Made by a program: the position numbers and the translations under genes. From a virus (lineage: Duplodnaviria > Caudoviricetes), in the IMG/VR virus record IMGVR_UViG_3300025889_000117, positions 1 to 63,203 of that record: a DNA stretch of 63,203 nucleotides. One strand, written 5' to 3'. Below, piece by piece: positions 8,289 through 62,890 of the stretch. Under the pieces are notes generated by a model, which saw only the letters and a list, made by a program, of their open reading frames with translations, was not told the origin of the DNA and ran no database searches. Each line of letters starts with the position of its first letter. Within the stretch, counting starts at the first letter, position 1.

Positions 8289-8621
8289 TTATGAACAAAA
8301 TTCGCATTGGTGGGGTGAACCGTCTCTATTAAGATTCTGTTTCCCATTATGTGACTTTAACATCCATAAATCATCAACCCATATACAAGCAACGTGCCAA
8401 GGGTATCTAGTATTTTCATATTCTTCTTCCCTATTAAAACCAAACAAGCCGTTTGATTTACCTTGTCCTTTAGTCCAAGTGGTGACTTTTTTTAAACTAC
8501 CGATATTATTGTCTATCATCCATTGTTCTATACGGTTTATTTCTTTCTCTAATTTTATACGATCAGGGTGATCCCAATCCATTTCTTCCCGTTTTGCTCT
8601 TAAATCTGCTAGTTTACCCAA
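8289..8621 (-). CDS. Hypothetical protein
   Basis: Overlaps the PrimPol-MCM stop; C-terminal N.DGSPH.C motif. Confidence 0.6.
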   Translation of the reverse strand: MGKLADLRAKREEMDWDHPDRIKLEKEINRIEQWMIDNNIGSLKKVTTWTKGQGKSNGLFGFNREEEYENTRYPWHVACIWVDDLWMLKSHNGKQNLNRDGSPHQCEFCS

Positions 8622-11037
8622 CTTTTCTATACCTCTCTAAGTCGTTATCTAATTCCAGTACCCCTGTTTCTATAAGTTTTCTAACCCTTTCATGTCCATC
8701 TAATTTGTTTAGTTTATAATTAATCTTATTTGCTAATTCGCCCTTATCTATTGTATTATCATATTCTGAATCCTGACATTCATGGATTGCTTCTAATATC
8801 TTACTGTCGTTTGTGTCTTTTTTCTTATTAAATTCCCCAGATACTTCCCCTGTCTGCATATTCATTTTCATACTTTTATAAGATTCGCTTATAATTGACT
8901 CGACAATATCGAAATCATCTGCTGTTACTTCGTTTCTAAGATGTGCTTTTGCACAAGCTGTTAATAATCTGTATAACCCGTGATACTGTCTTAATCCAAT
9001 AGGAACACCTGAATTAACATTAAGTGGTCGCATTTTTTTATGTAGTGCATCAATTCTATCCATATAATAATCAGGAATAATTGAATCTAAAGTTTGAATA
9101 TAAGTAAAGTATCTTTTTAATTCATCTACACTCATATATTTCTCCTTTCTGGAATTATAAGATCTAATCCATTTTCGCATTTTATCATCAGTTTCAGGAT
9201 CATTTGCATCAACAAGCAACCAAATTATATCAAATCTGGAAACAAATGGTGCTTCCATTTCAAAGTTATCCATTACACTAGGATATTTAGAATTAAACTT
9301 GCCGTTCTTTGGATTACCTGCTACTAGTATTGGACATTTTGCGGGTAAAGTTATACCACCACCACTCCCTGCTTTAGCCTGACTAGTTGTTTGTTGTTCC
9401 ATTACTTCGAGACATGAATTATGATCCTCTTTTTTCATTTTATCTATTTCATCAAGGATACAATGGTGTCCTGTATGCTGTGGAAAGAAACCTGCTTGTG
9501 GCATCATAGTACCGTTATAAAGTTTCACAGTTGCAATAGTAAGACCTGCACCACTTACATTTCTACCAACTGTATAACCTGAACCGTCTAATAGTTTATT
9601 CATTTTTAATAGTAATTCTGATTTACCTAATTGTGCATCACCTAATATGGCACAATGTATAAGATCTCTCTTACCATTGAGAGAATTACCACCACAAGCC
9701 CATAATACTAATGTTTGTATAATCTTATCATTCATGTATATATCAGGAACTATTGAATCTGTAACTCTTTTGAATATATCTGATTTTTTCCATTCTTCTA
9801 CTTCTTCTGCTGTTGGTAAACAACCTTGTGATTGTTCAATATCTTTCATATCTGTTATTTGAAATACTATTTGATTATAAGCCTGATTCTTTTTCATTAT
9901 AGAGCGAAACTTTGCTGTTACTGTTTTTCGTTGACCAATGAAAGCTTCACCTACTGTTTCATCAGTTATTTCTGCATCAAATTGAATAGGGCTACTGTTC
10001 CTAGCATCTTCAAAAAACTCTTGTATTCTAAGTTGTTGAATATAAGATGTCACTTTTGATCTTTCGTCTATAACATAAGAAACCTTGTCCTTTACACAAT
10101 ATGGTGCTGTTATACGGTGTAAATCATCACAATGAGTTTTTGTTTGATTATGACAATAAGGACATTCATAATCTGCTGATACAGTATAAGTCATTCTTTC
10201 TCCAACTGCTATAATCATACAGTTAAAAGATATTGGTTTTCCTTCTAATGCAGGTGTTATATTCTGCATATCTACAGGCATAGGAGTTCCGCCTAATTGT
10301 TGTAATACGGTTCTTGCATCATCAATATGTTTTATAAGATTTTGTTTTTCTGATTTCTCCGCCTGTGAGATTATAAGTTTTAATTCTGAAGTAGGCATTG
10401 GTGGTGTATGTCGTTTATTTAGTTCTTCTAATTCTTTGTATAATGATTGTCCATACAGTCCCTTATCTCTTATAAGATAACAGGCGTATTTAAAAGTGGA
10501 ATCATTTCTACCACCTTCTGATACTCCTTGTGCTATTTCTTCTATTGATCTTGTTTGTACGTTAAATCCTATTGATTCAAGTTTTTCCCGAAGTCTTGTT
10601 CCACTTATATCCATTATGGGTGAATCATCAACTATTGTATATACACTTCCATTTGGATGTATTGAACTAGGTGCTAAAACATAACCGCCTTGTGATTTTA
10701 TATCAATATGCCTTCCACGTTTATCATCTAGTTTTTTATTTGGTGGTGGAAATCCATGAAAATGAAAATACAGGTGTTGTCCTTTACCTGTCTTTACTTT
10801 TAATGTTTTAAATTCTTCAAAGTCTTTGATTAATGATTCATCATCTAGATCAACCACAAATAGATTGTCACTTGATCTTCCACAAACTACTCCTATATTA
10901 CAGGTTGAGGGAAACGAACCTTCGTATTTTTCTTCTTGATATTCTTTCCAATTAAAACCACCAATAGGTTCTTTTGATCTTGGTTTAAGAGGTATTAGGT
11001 TAAATCCTAATGCTTTTAGTTTATCTATTTCTGACAT
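8614..11037 (-). CDS. mcm: Bifunctional primase-polymerase + PriCT + MCM helicase fusion
   Basis: PrimPol motifs SKEP, NIGVVCG, VVDLD, TGKG.HLYF, GGYVLAPSS.H; PriCT EGGRN; MCM Zn finger, Walker A GDAQLGKS, SGAGLT, Walker B ILDEIDKM, AGNP, Arg finger SRFD. Confidence 0.93.
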   Translation of the reverse strand: MSEIDKLKALGFNLIPLKPRSKEPIGGFNWKEYQEEKYEGSFPSTCNIGVVCGRSSDNLFVVDLDDESLIKDFEEFKTLKVKTGKGQHLYFHFHGFPPPNKKLDDKRGRHIDIKSQGGYVLAPSSIHPNGSVYTIVDDSPIMDISGTRLREKLESIGFNVQTRSIEEIAQGVSEGGRNDSTFKYACYLIRDKGLYGQSLYKELEELNKRHTPPMPTSELKLIISQAEKSEKQNLIKHIDDARTVLQQLGGTPMPVDMQNITPALEGKPISFNCMIIAVGERMTYTVSADYECPYCHNQTKTHCDDLHRITAPYCVKDKVSYVIDERSKVTSYIQQLRIQEFFEDARNSSPIQFDAEITDETVGEAFIGQRKTVTAKFRSIMKKNQAYNQIVFQITDMKDIEQSQGCLPTAEEVEEWKKSDIFKRVTDSIVPDIYMNDKIIQTLVLWACGGNSLNGKRDLIHCAILGDAQLGKSELLLKMNKLLDGSGYTVGRNVSGAGLTIATVKLYNGTMMPQAGFFPQHTGHHCILDEIDKMKKEDHNSCLEVMEQQTTSQAKAGSGGGITLPAKCPILVAGNPKNGKFNSKYPSVMDNFEMEAPFVSRFDIIWLLVDANDPETDDKMRKWIRSYNSRKEKYMSVDELKRYFTYIQTLDSIIPDYYMDRIDALHKKMRPLNVNSGVPIGLRQYHGLYRLLTACAKAHLRNEVTADDFDIVESIISESYKSMKMNMQTGEVSGEFNKKKDTNDSKILEAIHECQDSEYDNTIDKGELANKINYKLNKLDGHERVRKLIETGVLELDNDLERYRKVG

Positions 11038-52413: not shown

Positions 52414-52680
52414 TTATGCCATTTTTTTGTCATACTTCTTCTTCAATAGAGAATACATAATCATACCTATATTTATTATGGAAACAATTTCAATCAAATC
52501 CACCCCATATAAGAACCAATCCAAAATCGGATGTATTCTGCTCACTAATCCTGATTGTAGCATAAGATCTGCGTTCCATATCATATGTGGTATCTGAATA
52601 AACTGGATTACAGCAATTAATATCACTGAACCCAAAATCTTGTTTTCGTACCATTCCCAAAATCTACTCCACGGGTTCAT
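52414..52680 (-). CDS. Small membrane protein (start moved to MNPW)
   Basis: Two hydrophobic segments; overlaps the radA end. Confidence 0.55.
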   Translation of the reverse strand: MNPWSRFWEWYENKILGSVILIAVIQFIQIPHMIWNADLMLQSGLVSRIHPILDWFLYGVDLIEIVSIINIGMIMYSLLKKKYDKKMA

Positions 52681-53692
52681 CTTCTTCCTTTTCCTCTTTC
52701 TTTGCTTTAGCCTTTGCTTTTTTACGTTCTTTTTCAATTTCCTCTGCTATTTCTTTATCTACAACACCAGCTTCACTTAATCCAAATGCAACTTCAATTT
52801 TTGCGTGTTTTGGACTATCAACCATTATAGCTATTCTATATGCACCTGATTTTTTGAAATATACTCTATATGTTGATTTATGTGCAAGTACAGTTCCCCC
52901 AACTGCCGTAACTGGATCACCGTAAAATACTCCGGGATTGATCATAACTTGGTTTGTCCATATAATTGCTATATTATGAAAATCAGCAATATTACTAGCC
53001 ATTGTTAAAAACTCATCAAGATATTTCTGTCTTTCAGATAACATACCTCTACCTGAAAAATCTTGTCTGAATAATCCTATTGCAGAGTCCATGATTATAA
53101 GTTTTATATTATTTGGATTTGATAACATTTCTTCTATTTGTTGAAGAATCATATATTGATCTGCTGAATTATAAGCCTTAACTCTAATTATTCTTTCTAG
53201 TGCTTTATCTTCATCTAAATTCAGATACTTTGCTATACTTCTTATCCTACTTGGTTCAAATGTTCCCTCAGAGTCAAGATATATTGCATCACCATCAAGA
53301 CCACCTTGATCTTTTGGTAACTGTACTCTTACACACATTGTATGGCAGAATTGGGTTTTGCCACAACCGAACTCCCCATATATTTCAGTTGTAGCTCCAC
53401 ACTCAATTCCACCTGTGAAGAGTTTGTCAAGTGCATTAGTTCCAGTTGTAATTTTTTCTATATTTCTATCCTCTTCATCAGCTTCCAATCCAGTTTGAAA
53501 TAATGGTTTTGAATTAAACACAGCTCTTGCTTTTTTAAACAAACCGATCGCACTTTCGTTATCTATACCTAACATTTCTGCTACTTTCGGTGGTGGTATT
53601 ACGAATAACTGTTCTACTGTTGTAATTCCATGCTCTGCAAATTTATCTGCATTTGCTTTACCTATACCTTTTAACTTTGTAATTTCTGTCAC
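52664..53692 (-). CDS. radA: Archaeal DNA recombinase RadA
   Basis: HhH N-domain LKGIG, ITTG...LD....GGIE, Walker A GEFGCGKTQ, DSEGTF.P.RI, Walker B LIIMDS, GRG.L.ERQ, TNQV, GG.VLAH, DSP. Confidence 0.96.
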   Translation of the reverse strand: MTEITKLKGIGKANADKFAEHGITTVEQLFVIPPPKVAEMLGIDNESAIGLFKKARAVFNSKPLFQTGLEADEEDRNIEKITTGTNALDKLFTGGIECGATTEIYGEFGCGKTQFCHTMCVRVQLPKDQGGLDGDAIYLDSEGTFEPSRIRSIAKYLNLDEDKALERIIRVKAYNSADQYMILQQIEEMLSNPNNIKLIIMDSAIGLFRQDFSGRGMLSERQKYLDEFLTMASNIADFHNIAIIWTNQVMINPGVFYGDPVTAVGGTVLAHKSTYRVYFKKSGAYRIAIMVDSPKHAKIEVAFGLSEAGVVDKEIAEEIEKERKKAKAKAKKEEKEEDEPVE

Positions 53693-56034: not shown

Positions 56035-56412
56035 TTTATACTTTAAATACTTTAAATATTAACAAACAATTATGTCATATGTAGATTTAAATGTAAAGGA
56101 TCTTAGAAGAATGTTAAGTATCTTTGCACAGTTATTTGTAGATAAACCTCTTACTGAAGCAGATGAAAAATTAAAAAAGAAATTAGAAGTCATGCTTGAA
56201 GCCGAAACCGATTGGGAAGAAGATTCTGAAGAAGATTAATATTACCCCAACGTTATATGAAATTGGCGATGAAGAAACACTTGAATCACTACTTCTACCA
56301 CATATGAATAGTGACTGACTATATCTTAGATCGATAGTAAAAAAAACCCGAATGGAGAAAAAATAGAAATCTGAGCCATTTACTTTAAATGTAAGTCTTT
56401 ATAAATAAGATA

Positions 56413-57171
56413 TTGCCTAGACTAACAGACATTACTGGTAATTGGTTTCCAGATCCTACATTACTTGTAGATATTACCCATGGCGGTGTCCCTAATTTAA
56501 AAAGTGTTGGTAAATTTGGTCATAACTTTGCCGTATCAAATACAGGTGATCCTGAAGATATATGGGAAGATGGGGGTAATTTGGTTTATCTTACCAGTGC
56601 AGAAACAATGACCATAGTTAGTACAAGTACCGAAGATGATGTTGGTGGTACAGGTGCAGAAAATATTATAATAGAAGGACTAGATAATGATTGGAAAGAA
56701 ATATCAGAAAAAATTAATCTCAATGGTACTGATGCAGTTGTTACAACAAAATCATTTATAAGAATAAACAGGGCGTACTGTGATGATGTAGGTAGCGAGG
56801 GAGTTAACCTTGGACTTATAACTATTGATGCAACAATAGCAGGTACTAGACAGGGATCAATTCAAACAAATGACGGTCAAACACAAAAGACACAATTTTC
56901 AATACCAGTAGGTAGAACTGGATATGTAAGACATTTTTGGGCTAACTGTGGTAAGGGTGATGATGCTACTGTAAGATTAATGGTTAGAAACTTTGGGAAA
57001 TCATGGAGAATACAAAGAGAGATAAAACTATTTGAATCTGTAGTTGATATAGAATTACAATCATATATAAAATTACCAGCAAAATCAGATATTAGGGTAG
57101 AAGCAATAAGTGGAGTTACTAACGGTATTAGTGTAGCAAGTGGATATGATTTATATATTTCAGGTCGCTAA
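56413..57171 (+). CDS. Conserved beta-rich phage protein of unknown function
   Basis: KFG.N, EDIW..G, STS..D...GTGA..I.IEGLD, LNGT..V.T...F.RINR, LP.KSDI. Confidence 0.7.
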   Translation: MPRLTDITGNWFPDPTLLVDITHGGVPNLKSVGKFGHNFAVSNTGDPEDIWEDGGNLVYLTSAETMTIVSTSTEDDVGGTGAENIIIEGLDNDWKEISEKINLNGTDAVVTTKSFIRINRAYCDDVGSEGVNLGLITIDATIAGTRQGSIQTNDGQTQKTQFSIPVGRTGYVRHFWANCGKGDDATVRLMVRNFGKSWRIQREIKLFESVVDIELQSYIKLPAKSDIRVEAISGVTNGISVASGYDLYISGR

Positions 57172-57200
57172 TCTTATAAGCAATAGCCTCAAAGCCTAAT

Positions 57201-57288
57201 TGTGAGAGAGTCAGAGTTCGACATTCTTGTGCGTTGGTGTGTAAACACATAAACGTATTCCCCTCAATTATATCCTAGTTGGGGGGAC
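57201..57288 (+). ncRNA. Candidate three-hairpin small RNA
   Basis: CTTATAAG ~25 nt upstream; stems GCGTT.GTGTG/CACAT.AACGT and TCCCCTCAATTA/TAGTTGGGGGGA with G-U pairs valid on plus strand. Confidence 0.4.
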
Positions 57289-57319
57289 ATTATAAATAAA
57301 AAAACGGTCTAGTCTTACG

Positions 57320-57442
57320 CTACCAAACCGATCCTTTGTCAGAACAATCTAACTGTGATCCGCAGTTATCACATCTTAGATGACATGGTTGTATTTCATT
57401 CATTCTGAAATCACATACCATACACAACTCGTCAGATTTCAT
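57320..57442 (-). CDS. 40-aa zinc-finger microprotein (not in ORF track)
   Basis: MKSDELCMVC...CHLRCDNCGSQLDCSDKGSVW; TTTATATA ~25 nt upstream. Confidence 0.7.
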   Translation of the reverse strand: MKSDELCMVCDFRMNEIQPCHLRCDNCGSQLDCSDKGSVW

Positions 57443-57476
57443 AATATTTATAAACCGTTATCATATATAAAGTTTC

Positions 57477-57552
57477 GGTGGTGTGTGCGTAACGTCAATC
57501 GTGAGACGGCAGGATCTCATCACTGGGGGGTAATTCTCACGATACCCCTCAG
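57477..57552 (+). ncRNA. Candidate pseudoknotted small RNA
   Basis: TTTATAAA ~25 nt upstream; stems GGTGGTG/CATCACT and CTGGGGGGTA/TACCCCTCAG; ATCGTGAGA complementary to TCTCACGAT. Confidence 0.5.
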
Positions 57553-57588
57553 TTATATTTATATGATGTAAAGTTATAACTTCCTATT

Positions 57589-57690
57589 ATGTCAGAATGT
57601 CCAACTTGTTCAGATGGCGGTATAGTTGAAAACCACGGGGGTTGTCACACTTGTCGCCAATGTGGATGGAGTGCTTGTCCTAGCGGATAA
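57589..57690 (+). CDS. 33-aa peptide resembling the C-terminal Cys cluster of class II ribonucleotide reductases (not in ORF track)
   Basis: CPTC...GGCHTCRQCGWSAC. Confidence 0.65.
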   Translation: MSECPTCSDGGIVENHGGCHTCRQCGWSACPSG

Positions 57691-57722
57691 CATTTTTATA
57701 TCCCATTAACCTTTCTTTTTTT

Positions 57723-58052
57723 ATGGACAGGGATTTATATTTAGATGGGTTAGCCCAAATTGACGTTCTTATGATTGATGAAGATAACAACTTGTTCAAG
57801 GTTAAGAAGGAATACTATGATGAATCATTAACCCATTGGAAAGATATGATAAAGTTATTCCCTAAACAAACAAAGTTTACCGTCTTTAATTATTGTTGCA
57901 TTACTGAATTACAAAAACGTTTGGGGGATATTAGTGATGAAGAACTTACAAATTATACAATGTTATTAATTCAAATAATGAGTGTTTCAGGAATATATAA
58001 AAAACTATTTGGCGAGGGGTGGGAGAAGGAATTATTAGACTATGAGCCGTAA
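57723..58052 (+). CDS. Hypothetical protein
   Basis: TTTTATA ~25 nt upstream. Confidence 0.6.
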   Translation: MDRDLYLDGLAQIDVLMIDEDNNLFKVKKEYYDESLTHWKDMIKLFPKQTKFTVFNYCCITELQKRLGDISDEELTNYTMLLIQIMSVSGIYKKLFGEGWEKELLDYEP

Positions 58053-58284
58053 AGATTGGGACTGTAAAGATTGTGGTAGAGAATTACCAATGGACTCTAA
58101 TCGGGGTAGGATCTACTGTGCAGAATGTGCGTATCAAAGAAGAAAGAAACATATGAACGCTATGAATATGCACCGAAGAATGATACCTAAATATATAATG
58201 CTACAAAGAATTATAAAGGATAACTTTAAAATAATGCAAAGTATGAACGTGACCGACAATGGGTGCGAAGCACCCGATCCATAA
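58042..58284 (+). CDS. Small zinc-finger protein
   Basis: CKDCG...YCAEC. Confidence 0.65.
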   Translation: MSRKDWDCKDCGRELPMDSNRGRIYCAECAYQRRKKHMNAMNMHRRMIPKYIMLQRIIKDNFKIMQSMNVTDNGCEAPDP

Positions 58285-58360
58285 TTTTAACCTTATATAT
58301 ATCTTTTTCGGGCGATCGGTAGGGGGAACCTTAATATTGGGGGATAGCCTACCTCTATTA

Positions 58361-58610: not shown

Positions 58611-59470
58611 ATGGGATCGCTAAATTTATGGTATTTAAATGTTGCTTTTGATGAAGCATCTGCTTCTATAAGGCTTACTTTGTTAGCATTACGGGATTTG
58701 ACTCCCCCCCCATTTATAAATCTTTTTCCTTATAAATTATAAAATTTTTCCCGTATAAGGCGATCTTATCGGATAACCTTATAATCTTATAATTCGGTAC
58801 CCCCCTATTTATAAATCTTTTTCCTTATCATGCGTGGCGAGTATGAGGATTTGAACCACCGTCATATATAAGGGTTGCGTGTGATTTTTATCGATCACGC
58901 CTAAAAAATTAGCGATGATCGCACATCACGCCTAGATTTTGGGGTATATAGTGATTTTTGATCGTAAATCATGTTTCACAAAGCGGAACAGGGGTGATCG
59001 CTAATACAATAAGGGGGGGTTGCTTTTTTTTTCATGCCTATATGGGGATCTTATAAGATATGATCATAATTGTTATAGGCACAAAGGGGGGATCAGTATA
59101 AAAAAACGCTTATCATTAATGATTAACATTGAATTCCCGCCATGCCTAAAAGATCACTATATAGTAATTTTTTTTTGGAATTTGTCAAAGTCTGCAAATT
59201 ATAAGCGTGATCTATTGTGGGAAATCCAAAAATTCTACAACAAAGGATTAAATACGCATGATCGCCCGTTTTTTTCGCATATTTTAAAAAAATCAATTTA
59301 GATTTTCTAGCTTCTATAGTTTTATAATTAATTCTATATAGTTTATAAAAAATCTATATAGATTTACCAAAAAACTGTATTCTCTTATAATTCGGTGTAA
59401 AATTAATTTTATAAAATTGTCAATGTTCTTTTAGTGTATTTTTTGCAAAAAATCCCGCAAAACAAAACAC

Positions 59471-59637
59471 TATTATAATCAATTTTTGGCAAATCCTAGA
59501 TCGTCAGATTTTTTTGGTGAAATAGAAAGATTATTATAATCATTTTTTCGCAAATCCTAGATCGTCAGATTTTTTGATAAAATAGAAAGGTTATTATAAT
59601 GATTTTTTGGCAAATCCTAGATCGTCAGATTTTTTTA
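59471..59637. repeat. Three ~60-bp direct repeats with core GCAAATCCTAGATCGTCAGATTTTTT
   Basis: Cores start at 59489, 59550 and 59610. Confidence 0.9.
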
Positions 59638-60056: not shown

Positions 60057-60250
60057 TTAGGCACGAATTTTATAAAAAAAATGTCAAAAAATGAGCATTT
60101 TTTATTTTTACGATCTTTTTTTATAATTTTTTTTTATAAAATTATAAGATTTAGGCACAAATTGCCTATTAAACCATCACGATTTTTTCGATTTGTGCCT
60201 AAATGATGGATCACTTATTGATTTATATTATAATTCATTTTAAGAATGGC
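60057..60250 (+). promoter_or_regulatory. Upstream control module, copy 1 (TAGGCAC sites + GATTTATATT TATA box)
   Basis: Colinear with 61861-62053. Confidence 0.7.
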
Positions 60251-61564
60251 ATGAAGAAATTCACAATTCAAACAATCGAAGAATTCGCAACAAGCGGATC
60301 ACAAAAATCATGGTTAAAGAAATTTTTTAACCTAATCGAAGATCATGATTTATGGAATCAATCAGTAAGCCAAATCTTACTTAGAATGGAACAAGAAGTA
60401 ACAACAAAAACCACGTACTCAGCAATGAAGTCAACTTTTCTAAAGTTCACAAGTTCTCTCGATTTAGAAGGTAAAACTTCAACCGAATCTCAAGCAGAAT
60501 TGAGACAAAGAGAAGAATTCATCAAAATTCAAGCCGAACAACTAAGAGAACAACAAGAACTAGCAAAAATTGAAGCTGAAAAAATCGCAGAAATGCAAAA
60601 AATCGAAGCTGAAAAAATGGCAAAAATCGAAGCTGAAAAATTAGCACAAGCACAAAAAGAGAGAATTGAGGAATTAACTGCGGGTTTCGTACCTGAGGAA
60701 ATTCCAGACGAATTTATAAAATTCGATCCTGAAAATTATAAACTCCAAAAAGCCTCAGAATATTTCCAACAAGATCAAGAAAAAGAAATTTTCGATGCAT
60801 TGTTGACATTCGGAAAAAATGTGATTTTGACCGGTCAACAAGGAACTGGAAAAACTGAGCTTGCACAATTACACGCTTTTGAAAATCAAGATCCAATGTT
60901 CAAAATCGCTTGTTCAGCTGATTTAAGAAAAACCGATTTGATCGGATCAAAAACATTAGATCAAGACGAAAAATTAAAACAAATTGCGGGAATGTTAACA
61001 AGAGCCGTTTTAACCGCAAATAAAACCGGATCTGCCATGGTGCTTTTAGACGAAGGAAATGCCTTGATTCCTAAAGTGCAAATCATGCTTTATGGTTTGA
61101 CAGATTCAACAAGAAGGATCGATCTTCCTGAAATGACAAAACCACTTGTTTTGAATAAAGGTGCTAGATTGAAATTTGTCATTACCATGAATGATCAATA
61201 TTCAGGAACTAGTCCATTGAATAAACCATTATTGGACAGATTCAATGTAATCCAAATGAAGAGACTACCAAAACAAATTGTTTTGAAAATTATAAAAAAT
61301 TATAACGTCTCAAGCGAAATCAAAAACAAGCTTTTTGAACTTTCAGAAGCTATTGATCAAGCACAAAGATCAAACACTCTATCAGAACAAGCTAACATGA
61401 GTGTTAGAGCGATTAAAGCAATTTGTGAAGAAATAGAAATTTTCACAATGGCAAAAATCGAAAACCCTGTGAAAGAAGCTTTAGAAGTAGGGATCGTTAA
61501 AAAATTCTCAGAAGAGAAATACCAAGAAGAGGTGAGAGAAATTATAAGAAAAATCGGATTTTAA
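60251..61564 (+). CDS. MoxR/CobS-like AAA+ ATPase with N-terminal EAEK coiled coil (start moved to 60251)
   Basis: Walker A GQQGTGKT, DLIG, G.LT.A, Walker B LLDEGN, TMN..Y.GT..LN..L.DRF, SVR. Confidence 0.9.
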   Translation: MKKFTIQTIEEFATSGSQKSWLKKFFNLIEDHDLWNQSVSQILLRMEQEVTTKTTYSAMKSTFLKFTSSLDLEGKTSTESQAELRQREEFIKIQAEQLREQQELAKIEAEKIAEMQKIEAEKMAKIEAEKLAQAQKERIEELTAGFVPEEIPDEFIKFDPENYKLQKASEYFQQDQEKEIFDALLTFGKNVILTGQQGTGKTELAQLHAFENQDPMFKIACSADLRKTDLIGSKTLDQDEKLKQIAGMLTRAVLTANKTGSAMVLLDEGNALIPKVQIMLYGLTDSTRRIDLPEMTKPLVLNKGARLKFVITMNDQYSGTSPLNKPLLDRFNVIQMKRLPKQIVLKIIKNYNVSSEIKNKLFELSEAIDQAQRSNTLSEQANMSVRAIKAICEEIEIFTMAKIENPVKEALEVGIVKKFSEEKYQEEVREIIRKIGF

Positions 61565-61570
61565 AAAATC

Positions 61571-61680
61571 CAATTTTTTTTTCAAAATTTTTTTTATAAA
61601 ATCTTATAATTTTTTTTTTCATTTTTTTTTCAATTTTTTTTTCAAAAATTTTTTTTATAAAATTCTTATAATTTTTTTTT
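61571..61680. repeat. Two ~60-bp T-rich direct repeats after the ATPase (terminator-like)
   Basis: CAATTTTTTTTTCAAAA...TATAAAAT(T)CTTATAATTTTTTTT twice. Confidence 0.65.
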
Positions 61681-61860
61681 GCAACAAAATTTTTTTGAAT
61701 TAACGGTACGGTACTTTCAAGTACTGGTACTTTATTTTAAATCAACGGTACTTTATTTTGTGGTAAATGGTATGCTAAGTATGGATACTATTGATACTGT
61801 TTAGATTTCAGAAATTTCTTAAGTCTTAATTTTAGTATCCATTTTACTGATACTGTTTTT

Positions 61861-62053
61861 TTAGGCACAAATTAAGCATGAAGAAAAGGCAAAAAATGAA
61901 CATTTTTTATTTTACCGATCTTTTTACTTGTTATTTTTTTTCAAAAATTCCCGATTTAGGCACAAATTGCCTATTAAACCCCAATGATTTTTTGATTTGT
62001 GCCTATTTTGCGATCGGTGGTTGATTTATATTAGAACTATTGATAAAAATGCC
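61861..62053 (+). promoter_or_regulatory. Upstream control module, copy 2
   Basis: Shares GATTTAGGCACAAATTGCCTATTAAACC, GATTTGTGCCTA and TTGATTTATATTA with copy 1. Confidence 0.7.
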
Positions 62054-62890
62054 ATGGAAATTACAGAAATCACACTAGAGAAAAACCAAAAAGATCCAAT
62101 TTTTAAAGAGCGATCAAATAAAGGTTACAAGGTTAATCAAGCATTAGCCGACAGAATCGGAGAAACTTTAAACAAAATTAAAGGAAGAATGGATCAAGAA
62201 ATCGGAGAAAGCGGAGATTTAGACGAAGAAGAATATCTAGATTTTCGTGTGGATCGAAAATTAGGATTCATGAAAAACTTAGATATTTTTAACGAAACAA
62301 ACGAAAAAAACGGGTTAGACGTCGTTTTTCTTGTTGATTGCTCCGGCTCAATGCGTGGACTTCAGCAAAAAATGGCAGACATAACCGCCACTGTTATGTT
62401 GGGATTAAAAAAATGTCCTTTCATTAATTTTAAGACATTGGCTTATTCGGCTAGCGGGTACGAATATCAAGGATATTATGAAATAATTACCGACTTCACA
62501 CAAGCTGGAAAAATTCACGCCGACGAAGATCACTATCATGATGTTCACCATTTAGCGATCGCTGAAGCTAGAAAAATGTTGGAAGAAAGCGAAAATAAAC
62601 GTTTGATTATTTTTATGACCGACGGTTACCCAGAAGGTAGATTAGAAGGAAGATCAATACCTCAAGAATTATTGTGGACTATGATCGAAAAAGAGATCAC
62701 AAAATCAAAAAATAAAGAAATTGATTTTTTCGCTATCTACTACGATCGTATTGGGCGTGGTGCTTCTGATAGAATGAAAAAATGCTTTAGAAATTCACTT
62801 TATGTGACTCACGATTTCTTAGATATTCAAACAAAGTTAATTGAAAAATTAAATCAAACAGTGGAAAAACTAAATTCAGGAGCTTCTTAA
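62054..62890 (+). CDS. vWA (MIDAS) domain protein, MoxR partner (start moved to 62054)
   Basis: SGDLD, VFLVDCSGSM (DxSxS), IFMTDGYP. Confidence 0.9.
   Translation: MEITEITLEKNQKDPIFKERSNKGYKVNQALADRIGETLNKIKGRMDQEIGESGDLDEEEYLDFRVDRKLGFMKNLDIFNETNEKNGLDVVFLVDCSGSMRGLQQKMADITATVMLGLKKCPFINFKTLAYSASGYEYQGYYEIITDFTQAGKIHADEDHYHDVHHLAIAEARKMLEESENKRLIIFMTDGYPEGRLEGRSIPQELLWTMIEKEITKSKNKEIDFFAIYYDRIGRGASDRMKKCFRNSLYVTHDFLDIQTKLIEKLNQTVEKLNSGAS

Follow-up and report, generated by a model that had tools for sequence, protein, structure and literature searches.

The window, a stretch of 63,203 bp that forms a complete virus record with direct terminal repeats, carries at positions 57477-57552 (+) a candidate small RNA, recognised from its letters, its fold and its model matches. 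We give about an even chance to the reading in which this segment is a predicted non-coding RNA gene of ~75 nt, belonging to an archaeal tailed virus and representing a divergent member of a cassette of aquatic archaeal viruses. A predicted stand-alone viral small RNA is the most likely identity of the candidate, and it is probably a real and previously uncatalogued one. An initial annotation had proposed a new structured RNA at this place. That the segment is transcribed, structured and uncatalogued is probable from the TATA distance, the strand-dependent fold and the relatives, whereas the suggestion of a ribozyme-, riboswitch- or Alu-like RNA found no Rfam match.

The window is the genome of an archaeal tailed virus

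Viruses of marine and freshwater ammonia-oxidising archaea are known from metagenomes only. The window encodes a portal, a tail tube protein, an ordinary large terminase, an MT-A70 methylase, a RadA/Rad51 recombinase with an HhH domain (52664-53692, -) and a primase-polymerase fused to an MCM helicase (8614-11037, -). An AAA_5 ATPase followed by a VWA protein (60203-62890, +) may form a cobaltochelatase-like pair. The sole relatives of the portal in the phage collection are those of haloarchaeal tailed viruses, at 23% identity, and the window virus is an archaeal tailed virus. A Lake Baikal preprint reports freshwater viruses related to the marine 'marthaviruses' of ammonia-oxidising archaea and lists radA, ATPases and CobS as typical of them. 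In gene content the window fits marthavirus-like viruses, and on that basis the host would be an ammonia-oxidising archaeon. Near-identical DNA is present in contigs of freshwater- and sediment-labelled runs from other studies.

The candidate RNA is predicted to fold on one strand

As the initial annotation had said, the segment is GC-rich (0.553, against 0.312 for the whole window), and the letters and coordinates given for its features were all present as claimed. P1 pairs GGTGGTG (57477-83) with CATCACT (57518-24), making seven pairs of which two are G-U, and P2 pairs CTGGGGGGTA (57523-32) with TACCCCTCAG (57543-52), making ten pairs of which one is G-U. The proposed pseudoknot of 9 bp joins ATCGTGAGA (57498-506) to its exact complement TCTCACGAT (57535-43), and GTGAGA (57501-06) has a second possible partner in TCTCAT (57515-20). 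All pairs were checked by script; as written, P1 and P2 overlap at 57523-24, and the pseudoknot and P2 overlap at 57543.

The RNA of the + strand folds at -29.8 kcal/mol (z -2.93, with 3 of 200 shuffles as good; z -2.79 when folded alongside the relatives), while the - strand of the same segment gives a z of -0.93. The folds use G-U pairs, and any structure therefore belongs to the + strand RNA and not to the DNA. In the nested minimum-energy fold, P1 and P2 form together with a small CGTC/GACG hairpin, at pair probabilities of 0.9-1.0. P2 is the 3' GC-rich hairpin (57523-57552, +), in which 8 of the 10 pairs have probabilities of 0.83-1.0 and whose loop (57533-42) contains TCTCAC (57535-40). 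The alternative fold that had been proposed fared less evenly: the local GTGAGA/TCTCAT pairing can form by its letters, yet its probability is ~0 in the nested ensemble, at -20.6 to -21.4 kcal/mol.

The 9-bp complement would link the loop of the CGTC/GACG hairpin with the loop of P2. It lies outside the computed folds, as the folding tools used do not score pseudoknots, and amounts to -12.0 kcal/mol as an isolated duplex. In the window, exact inverted repeats of at least 9 bp, spanning at most 80 nt and with an arm GC of at least 0.44, number 2, against 2.05 expected from 100 first-order Markov simulations; the 9-bp match alone is therefore not beyond chance.

ARAGORN returned 0 tRNA or tmRNA genes in the whole window, in agreement with the view that the segment is not a tRNA. 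Rfam 15 gave 0 matches in the whole window at gathering scores, and 3 matches in 56900-57900 at E values up to 10, none of them on 57477-57552. The models covered included hammerhead and other ribozymes, cobalamin and SAM riboswitches, SRP, pRNA and C/D sRNAs, and none of them matched the segment. Four relatives searched in the same way (L145, L163, L159 and L168) gave 4 weak matches, none on the RNA cassette. A short ORF inside the RNA was considered and rejected, since by eye its frame is not kept among the variants; a 63-aa ORF (57380-57571) spans the promoter.

Predicted crossed promoters precede the candidate RNA

Among the 81 ORFs of at least 80 aa in the window, 38 TATA-like hexamers start between 30 and 27 nt before the ATG, 15 of them at -29; elsewhere, a position mostly holds 0-3 such starts. 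This peak indicates that the window virus makes mostly leaderless mRNAs, beginning ~29 nt past the TATA hexamer, and the majority of its genes appear leaderless. Applied to the TTTATA at 57447, the -29 rule predicts a + strand start at 57476-78, which matches 57477. The TATA box proposed to drive the RNA, TTTATAAA (57447-57454, +), contains this TTTATA, starting 29-31 nt before 57476-57478.

A second TATA box, ATCATATATAAA (57460-57471, -), reads TTTATA... on the - strand and would serve the divergent neighbour, a leaderless, Cys-rich, Zn-ribbon-like ORF of 40 aa (57320-57442, -) taken from the ORF list, for which Pfam holds no family. The A of its minus-strand ATG (57442) is exactly 29 nt from the box. 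The two boxes lie 17 bp apart and point across each other, forming a crossed two-way promoter at which, we infer, the two initiation complexes are mutually exclusive. The arrangement is kept in relatives: an A/T-rich box stands at the position of the RNA promoter in all of them, ATCATATATAAA is conserved nearly letter for letter, and the 40-aa ORF is present in L004, L027, L017, L032 and L010. A third box (57558-57564, +) precedes the ATG of the downstream peptide gene (57589) by 30-31 nt, and the AATCTTTATATGA around it is conserved in all 5 aligned loci.

Related viruses carry a promoter-linked cassette

A search with the portal yielded 39 loci at 66-84% identity. Comparison by blastn, nhmmer and alignment revealed that both genes flanking the candidate are kept and that the spacer between them is variable: it holds almost nothing in L017, 80-100 nt starting with GGTGTGTGC in L004 and L027, and a longer insert in L032. 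Related contigs, viral and metagenomic, carry an RNA-like cassette of ~65-75 nt, linked to a promoter, either at this place or close to it. Among all collected loci, GGTGTGTGC preceded by a TATA-like motif occurs 49 times in 25 distinct sequences, 1 of which is unrelated. Copies of the cassette share the blocks GGTGTGTGC, ACGYCAAT and RGGAT, together with a GC-rich hairpin on the 3' side.

In the commonest type, with 17 distinct sequences, GGTGTGTGC and a short loop lead to ACGCCAAT; then come a small helix with an interruption, whose end is GGCAGGAT, a linker and a GTGGC-TCTCAC-GCCAC hairpin. Single further variants are found in L159, L004, L027/L156, L032 and L038. In L004, L027 and L032 the 3' hairpin is present with a loop that lacks TCTCAC, and in L004 a run of six T follows straight after it. 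A covariance model, R1, whose seed includes the window, gave 40 matches in 68 sources, making up 24 distinct rows; 1 match, in a bacterial contig, is a chance one. As 17 of the 24 distinct rows are of one type, the diversity of the family is low.

In the window, the conserved 5' block shared with the family (57480-57499, +) comprises GGTGTGTGC (57480-88), of which this is the single exact copy in the window, and ACGTCAAT (57492-99). The conserved central block GGCAGGAT (57508-57515, +) reads GGCAGGAT, GGTAGGAT or GACAGGAT across the family. The 5' block, of 9 plus 8 letters, keeps a fixed distance from the promoter among viruses whose portals are only ~70% identical.

Other routes to relatives gave little. 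A blastn search of phage records with 56400-58300 returned nothing, the exact 24-nt hairpin pattern had no match in viral contigs, and the upstream 252-aa protein led to one distant, uninformative locus (L002) and the 109-aa protein to none. A scan of 185,579 species genomes with an exact pattern gave 2 chance matches, both of Arthrobacter type, and neither a host copy nor an att site; by that exact pattern the cassette looks virus-specific. Among the viral-contig matches listed, the pattern GGTGTGTGC...ACGYCAAT hit one oversampled, unrelated phage group together with scattered coding matches, and these were judged to be chance. That phage group, represented by many contigs of one sample (L042-L119), has GGTGTGTGCG...ACGTCAATCC in common with the 5' block of the window through the pattern used. 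A 'G type' hairpin with a TCTCA loop proved to be the second element, described below, on the wrong strand and was dropped from the family.

In L032 (2200-2600, -), whose insert is longer, the family RNA is followed by one more TATA-like box and by a further GC-rich hairpin bearing a T run; TTCTCAC lies unpaired before this further hairpin, which may be a tandem second unit.

The family folds into three hairpins, from which the window copy diverges

The consensus fold of the family comprises three hairpins, H1, H2 and H3, and RNAalifold gives the same three. H1 in the relatives is formed by pairing of the two halves of the 5' block. Folded singly, 5 of 7 relatives adopt the consensus hairpins, unlike the D type (L156); fold z values of the seven run from -2.15 to -4.51, and all 8 sequences tested, the window included, fold better than their shuffles. 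With the window left out, the consensus pairs in 98.0% of the cells of an alignment of 17 sequences, compared with 25-60% for slid controls. Both sides change in three of the consensus pairs, a number matched by 1 of 500 shuffles, and the covariation score of 0.080, against 0.038, was attained by 0 of 500. H1 is invariant in the family, and the covariation term of RNAalifold is only -0.04. Comparative support for the three-hairpin fold is modest.

Two observations weigh most in its favour. The inner part of H2 is replaced in L004 by a different helix of 5 bp, around which the outer TCC/GGA pairs stay. TCTCAC occurs in the loops of three unlike stems, namely GTGGC/GCCAC in the commonest type, AGGGGA/TCCCCT in L159 and the 10-bp stem of the window. 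A constant loop on changing stems is what a recognition loop would be expected to look like.

The window copy differs from the family in its middle part and in its fold. Its H1 is predicted to be weak, the H1/H2 pair probability is 0 and only H3 is shared; a family-like fold of the window RNA reaches -19.4 kcal/mol, against the minimum of -29.8. When the window is kept out of the model, its element still has the best score in 263,388 bases, although this score is 12.3 bits with an E value of 0.59, and the 32.9 bits obtained with R1 are discounted because the window is in the R1 seed. With a weak independent score and a differing fold, membership of the window therefore rests on position, promoter and short blocks. 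The predicted start lies ~29 nt after an A/T box, in a two-way promoter shared with a small Zn-ribbon gene, and the segment has the 5' block, the central RGGAT and a 3' hairpin with a TCTCAC loop. On these features, the window copy looks like a divergent member of the family.

The structure first proposed for the segment did not carry over to the relatives, which keep neither P1 nor the pseudoknot. Placed as a whole on the family alignment, it pairs in 39.4% of cells, within the 17.7-57.3% of slid controls. The 6 alignable pairs of the pseudoknot hold in 26.1% of cells, in an alignment that was fitted to the family fold and is thus biased against this structure, and the other 3 exist only in the window. 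By eye, no relative has a GTGAGA upstream of the TCTCAC loop. The initial annotation had itself named compensatory changes among homologues as the measure of the 9-bp pairing, and by that measure the pairing is without comparative support. The pseudoknot, P1 and a ribozyme or riboswitch role are left unsupported by the sequences compared here.

Close variants of the segment came from Logan contigs only. Those from 3 of 4 runs are identical wherever they overlap the stretch (X4 and X7 overlap parts only). A 341-nt contig from X5, of depth 3 and possibly containing errors, has 4 differences, of which 2 fall inside the RNA: 57520 T>C would turn a G-U pair of P1 into G-C, and 57526 G>A a G-U pair of P2 into A-U. 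No difference falls within the 9-bp arms. These changes are weakly consistent with P1 and P2 and silent on the pseudoknot.

The cassette moves independently of the downstream peptide gene

Downstream of the candidate lies a gene for a Cys-rich peptide of 33 aa (57589-57690, +). The description of this peptide as resembling the tail of ribonucleotide reductase (RNR) was confirmed by a motif scan of viral loci, which identified it as a free-standing copy of the RNR C-terminal tail. Its motif was found in 80 viral loci: free-standing in 15, in frames of at most 70 aa, at the end of frames of 195-335 aa in 9, and at the end of frames of at least 451 aa that run off the flank in 56. The four long frames tested were all RNR barrels (PF02867), one of them with a TSCPD domain; the window itself holds no RNR barrel domain. 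These longer relatives were found by the pattern scan, and a word-based search returned none. Against solved structures, the peptide gave weak Zn-ribbon matches only, at E values of 0.04 or worse.

The 40-aa ORF and the peptide gene border the cassette in the window and in L159, L004, L027 and L032. The commonest type has it ~1 kb away in the opposite direction, facing the 3' end of a convergent gene, and its divergent neighbour there is a different Zn-ribbon ORF of 32 aa, again 29 nt from the second TATA box. L017 and L197 keep the promoter and the peptide gene, and the RNA is cleanly missing. Thus, promoter and RNA travel together, and the RNA is dispensable. RNA and peptide gene are not linked, the RNA lying elsewhere in most relatives.

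This bears on a rival explanation, in which the segment is the 5' leader of the mRNA of the peptide and acts in cis as a switch, attenuator or riboswitch. Such a leader would fit the five loci in which the RNA runs in the same direction directly before the peptide gene, and the two exclusive pairings open to GTGAGA in the window RNA would suit a switch. No run of five T lies between the hairpin of the window and the peptide gene, and read-through is therefore possible. We nevertheless consider a leader unlikely, as the peptide gene has a conserved TATA box of its own ~30 nt before its ATG, like the leaderless genes of this virus, and no Shine-Dalgarno-like motif before that ATG. The relocation and dispensability of the RNA argue against an obligatory leader, as do the six T directly after the hairpin of L004 and the lack of any riboswitch model match.

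A second RNA-like element and a cluster of short repeats lie nearby

A second conserved RNA-like element (57202-57292, +) lies 270 nt upstream of the candidate, with its own TATA box at 57173-80. Its parts include the GAGAGTCAGA block on the 5' side, a hairpin in the middle and another, GC-rich, on the 3' side, with three hairpins in all by its fold, and it recurs in 20 distinct sequences of related loci, in varied places and on either strand. Its fold z is -5.91 in the window, -4.23 in L159 and -5.93 in L197. By eye, the middle hairpin shows a TAAAC-like loop on stems that vary from virus to virus. From a plain alignment, RNAalifold recovers the 3' hairpin only; 5 of its 7 pairs are altered on both sides in one sequence or more. 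Rfam has no match on this element.

The motif ATYGTGAGA has 3 exact matches in the window, all within 345 bp: the two arms of the 9-bp complement (57498-57506, direct, and 57535-57543, inverted) and a third copy at the predicted start of the second element (57199-57207, +). The count itself is unremarkable, with 1.45 expected and 18 of 100 shuffles reaching 3, and the clustering alone stands out; by hand arithmetic, a third copy within ~350 bp of the pair has a chance of ~0.02. GTGAGA occurs 11 times in the window, against ~22 expected. In relatives of the commonest type, GTGAGA is present once in the cassette, without any clustering.

Such clustering would be expected if the sites were DNA signals, that is, operators for a viral DNA-binding protein, with the hairpin serving only as terminator or insulator. 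The flanking small Zn-ribbon genes and the need for two promoters with TATA boxes 17 bp apart to compete would fit this explanation, as would the rarity of GTGAGA elsewhere. We hold it to be just as unlikely as a leader, given the unremarkable number of sites, the lack of a cluster in the commonest type, the strand-specific folding with its G-U pairs, and the loop motif that stays while the stems change.

It is more doubtful still that the segment has no function and is a GC-rich, fast-changing spacer beside a promoter, with chance complementarity. The highly variable length of the spacer, its absence in two relatives, the 9-bp repeat within chance and the weak homology of the window copy all point this way. 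Against it stand a GC content of 0.553 in a genome at 0.312, the 5' block at its fixed promoter distance across ~70%-identical portals, and folds that beat their shuffles in 8 of 8 sequences.

The start of the second element carries GTGAGAG, a complement of the TCTCAC loop of the candidate RNA. Since the loop has complements in this genome both within its own RNA and in the neighbouring element, it may be masked, or it may tie molecules together by loop-loop pairing, which is speculation on our part. A two-RNA switch would go further: the UCUCAC loop would kiss the GUGAGAG of the 57202-57292 element, 57498-57506 would mask the loop or link molecules and, together with the competing promoters, the switch would time early genes. 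We regard this as improbable. Duplex energies for the two elements, computed with internal structure ignored, were no better than those of shuffles in four genomes (z 0.79, 0.54, -1.29 and -1.77). If true, no earlier RNA-RNA regulatory circuit would have been described for any virus of ammonia-oxidising archaea.

It is highly improbable that the loop-loop pseudoknot forms the core of a new ribozyme that cleaves itself or of a riboswitch that binds a ligand: the sequence is compact and GC-rich and its 9-bp complement joins two predicted loops, but relatives lack P1 and the pseudoknot, at the pairing fractions given above, and no known model matches.

Discussion

Our preferred reading remains a stand-alone small RNA of the virus. 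We hypothesize that it is transcribed rightward from one arm of the compact two-way promoter, the other arm driving the leaderless Zn-ribbon gene, and that the transcript would end near the 3' hairpin. The RNA may then act in trans, as a regulatory or decoy RNA, with its exposed UCUCAC loop as the putative recognition element for a complementary RNA or a protein.

Several phage small regulatory RNAs have their own promoter, among them the lambda OOP RNA (~77 nt), the P4 CI RNA and the P1 c4 RNA; the latter two act through short complementary segments that recur nearby. Like these, the candidate is virus-encoded, ~70-80 nt long, has a promoter of its own amid small genes in a regulatory region, and ends in a GC-rich hairpin. 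It also shares with P4 CI and P1 c4 the recurring short complements, here ATYGTGAGA and TCTCAC. The three known RNAs are bacterial and have known antisense targets, whereas the candidate belongs to an archaeal virus, would use a TATA promoter and has no sequence likeness to them. By size, promoter and viral origin, phage small regulatory RNAs would be its closest working resemblance.

Other systems resemble it in part. The phi29-type pRNA is a structured viral RNA with two complementary loops through which copies join hand in hand, and two loops of the candidate are complementary within one molecule as well. However, the pRNA is longer, no Rfam match was obtained, the window encodes an ordinary large terminase, and the loop complement is not kept in relatives. 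The nut boxB of lambda and put of HK022 are promoter-proximal RNA elements of bacterial systems that act on polymerase; to our knowledge, no nut- or put-like element is known for archaeal RNA polymerase. The cassette resembles them in having two or three hairpins after an early promoter and a kept loop on changeable stems, and differs in that the commonest type faces a convergent gene. Like the Alu domain of SRP RNA, the candidate is small and GC-rich and may have a tertiary pairing between loops, but it matches no SRP model and the pairing is without comparative support.

Archaeal C/D box sRNAs are of similar size, GC-rich in an AT-rich genome and have their own promoter, yet the + strand of 57477-57552 contains neither a RUGAUGA nor a CUGA box. 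Its - strand has GTGATGA but, by eye, no CTGA within the usual 50-60 nt, and snoRNA models matched elsewhere only, at E values >1. The RGGATCA block may possibly resemble the 3' end of small-subunit rRNA, which is conserved. An archaeal ncRNA reported to be abundant, Tan1, is 229 nt long and comes from another host group, so it is not the candidate RNA. The accessible parts of the literature searched yielded no description of a non-coding RNA for viruses of ammonia-oxidising archaea.

The cassette is kept across portals of ~70% identity, moves with its promoter and is present or absent between close relatives, which are marks of an accessory regulatory or anti-defence element. It offers a short, concrete target for metatranscriptome searches. 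The region would also be a clean example of crossed, mutually exclusive archaeal promoters, and its neighbourhood adds a second RNA-like family and a free-standing RNR tail peptide.

Further repeats were observed in the window. TCGTCAGATTT, one letter off the ATCGTGAGA motif, occurs four times, at 57429-57439 in the first codons of the 40-aa ORF and in each ~60-nt unit of a three-unit tandem repeat at 59449-59629. The stretch at 58.7-60.2 kb is very AT-rich and filled with repeats, so it may be an origin or control region. A 29-nt unit made of a C-run and TTTATAAA is present in two near-identical copies (58705-58733 and 58800-58828), and TTTAGGCACAAA occurs three times (59074, 59852 and 60150); both kinds of repeat may be repeated promoters.
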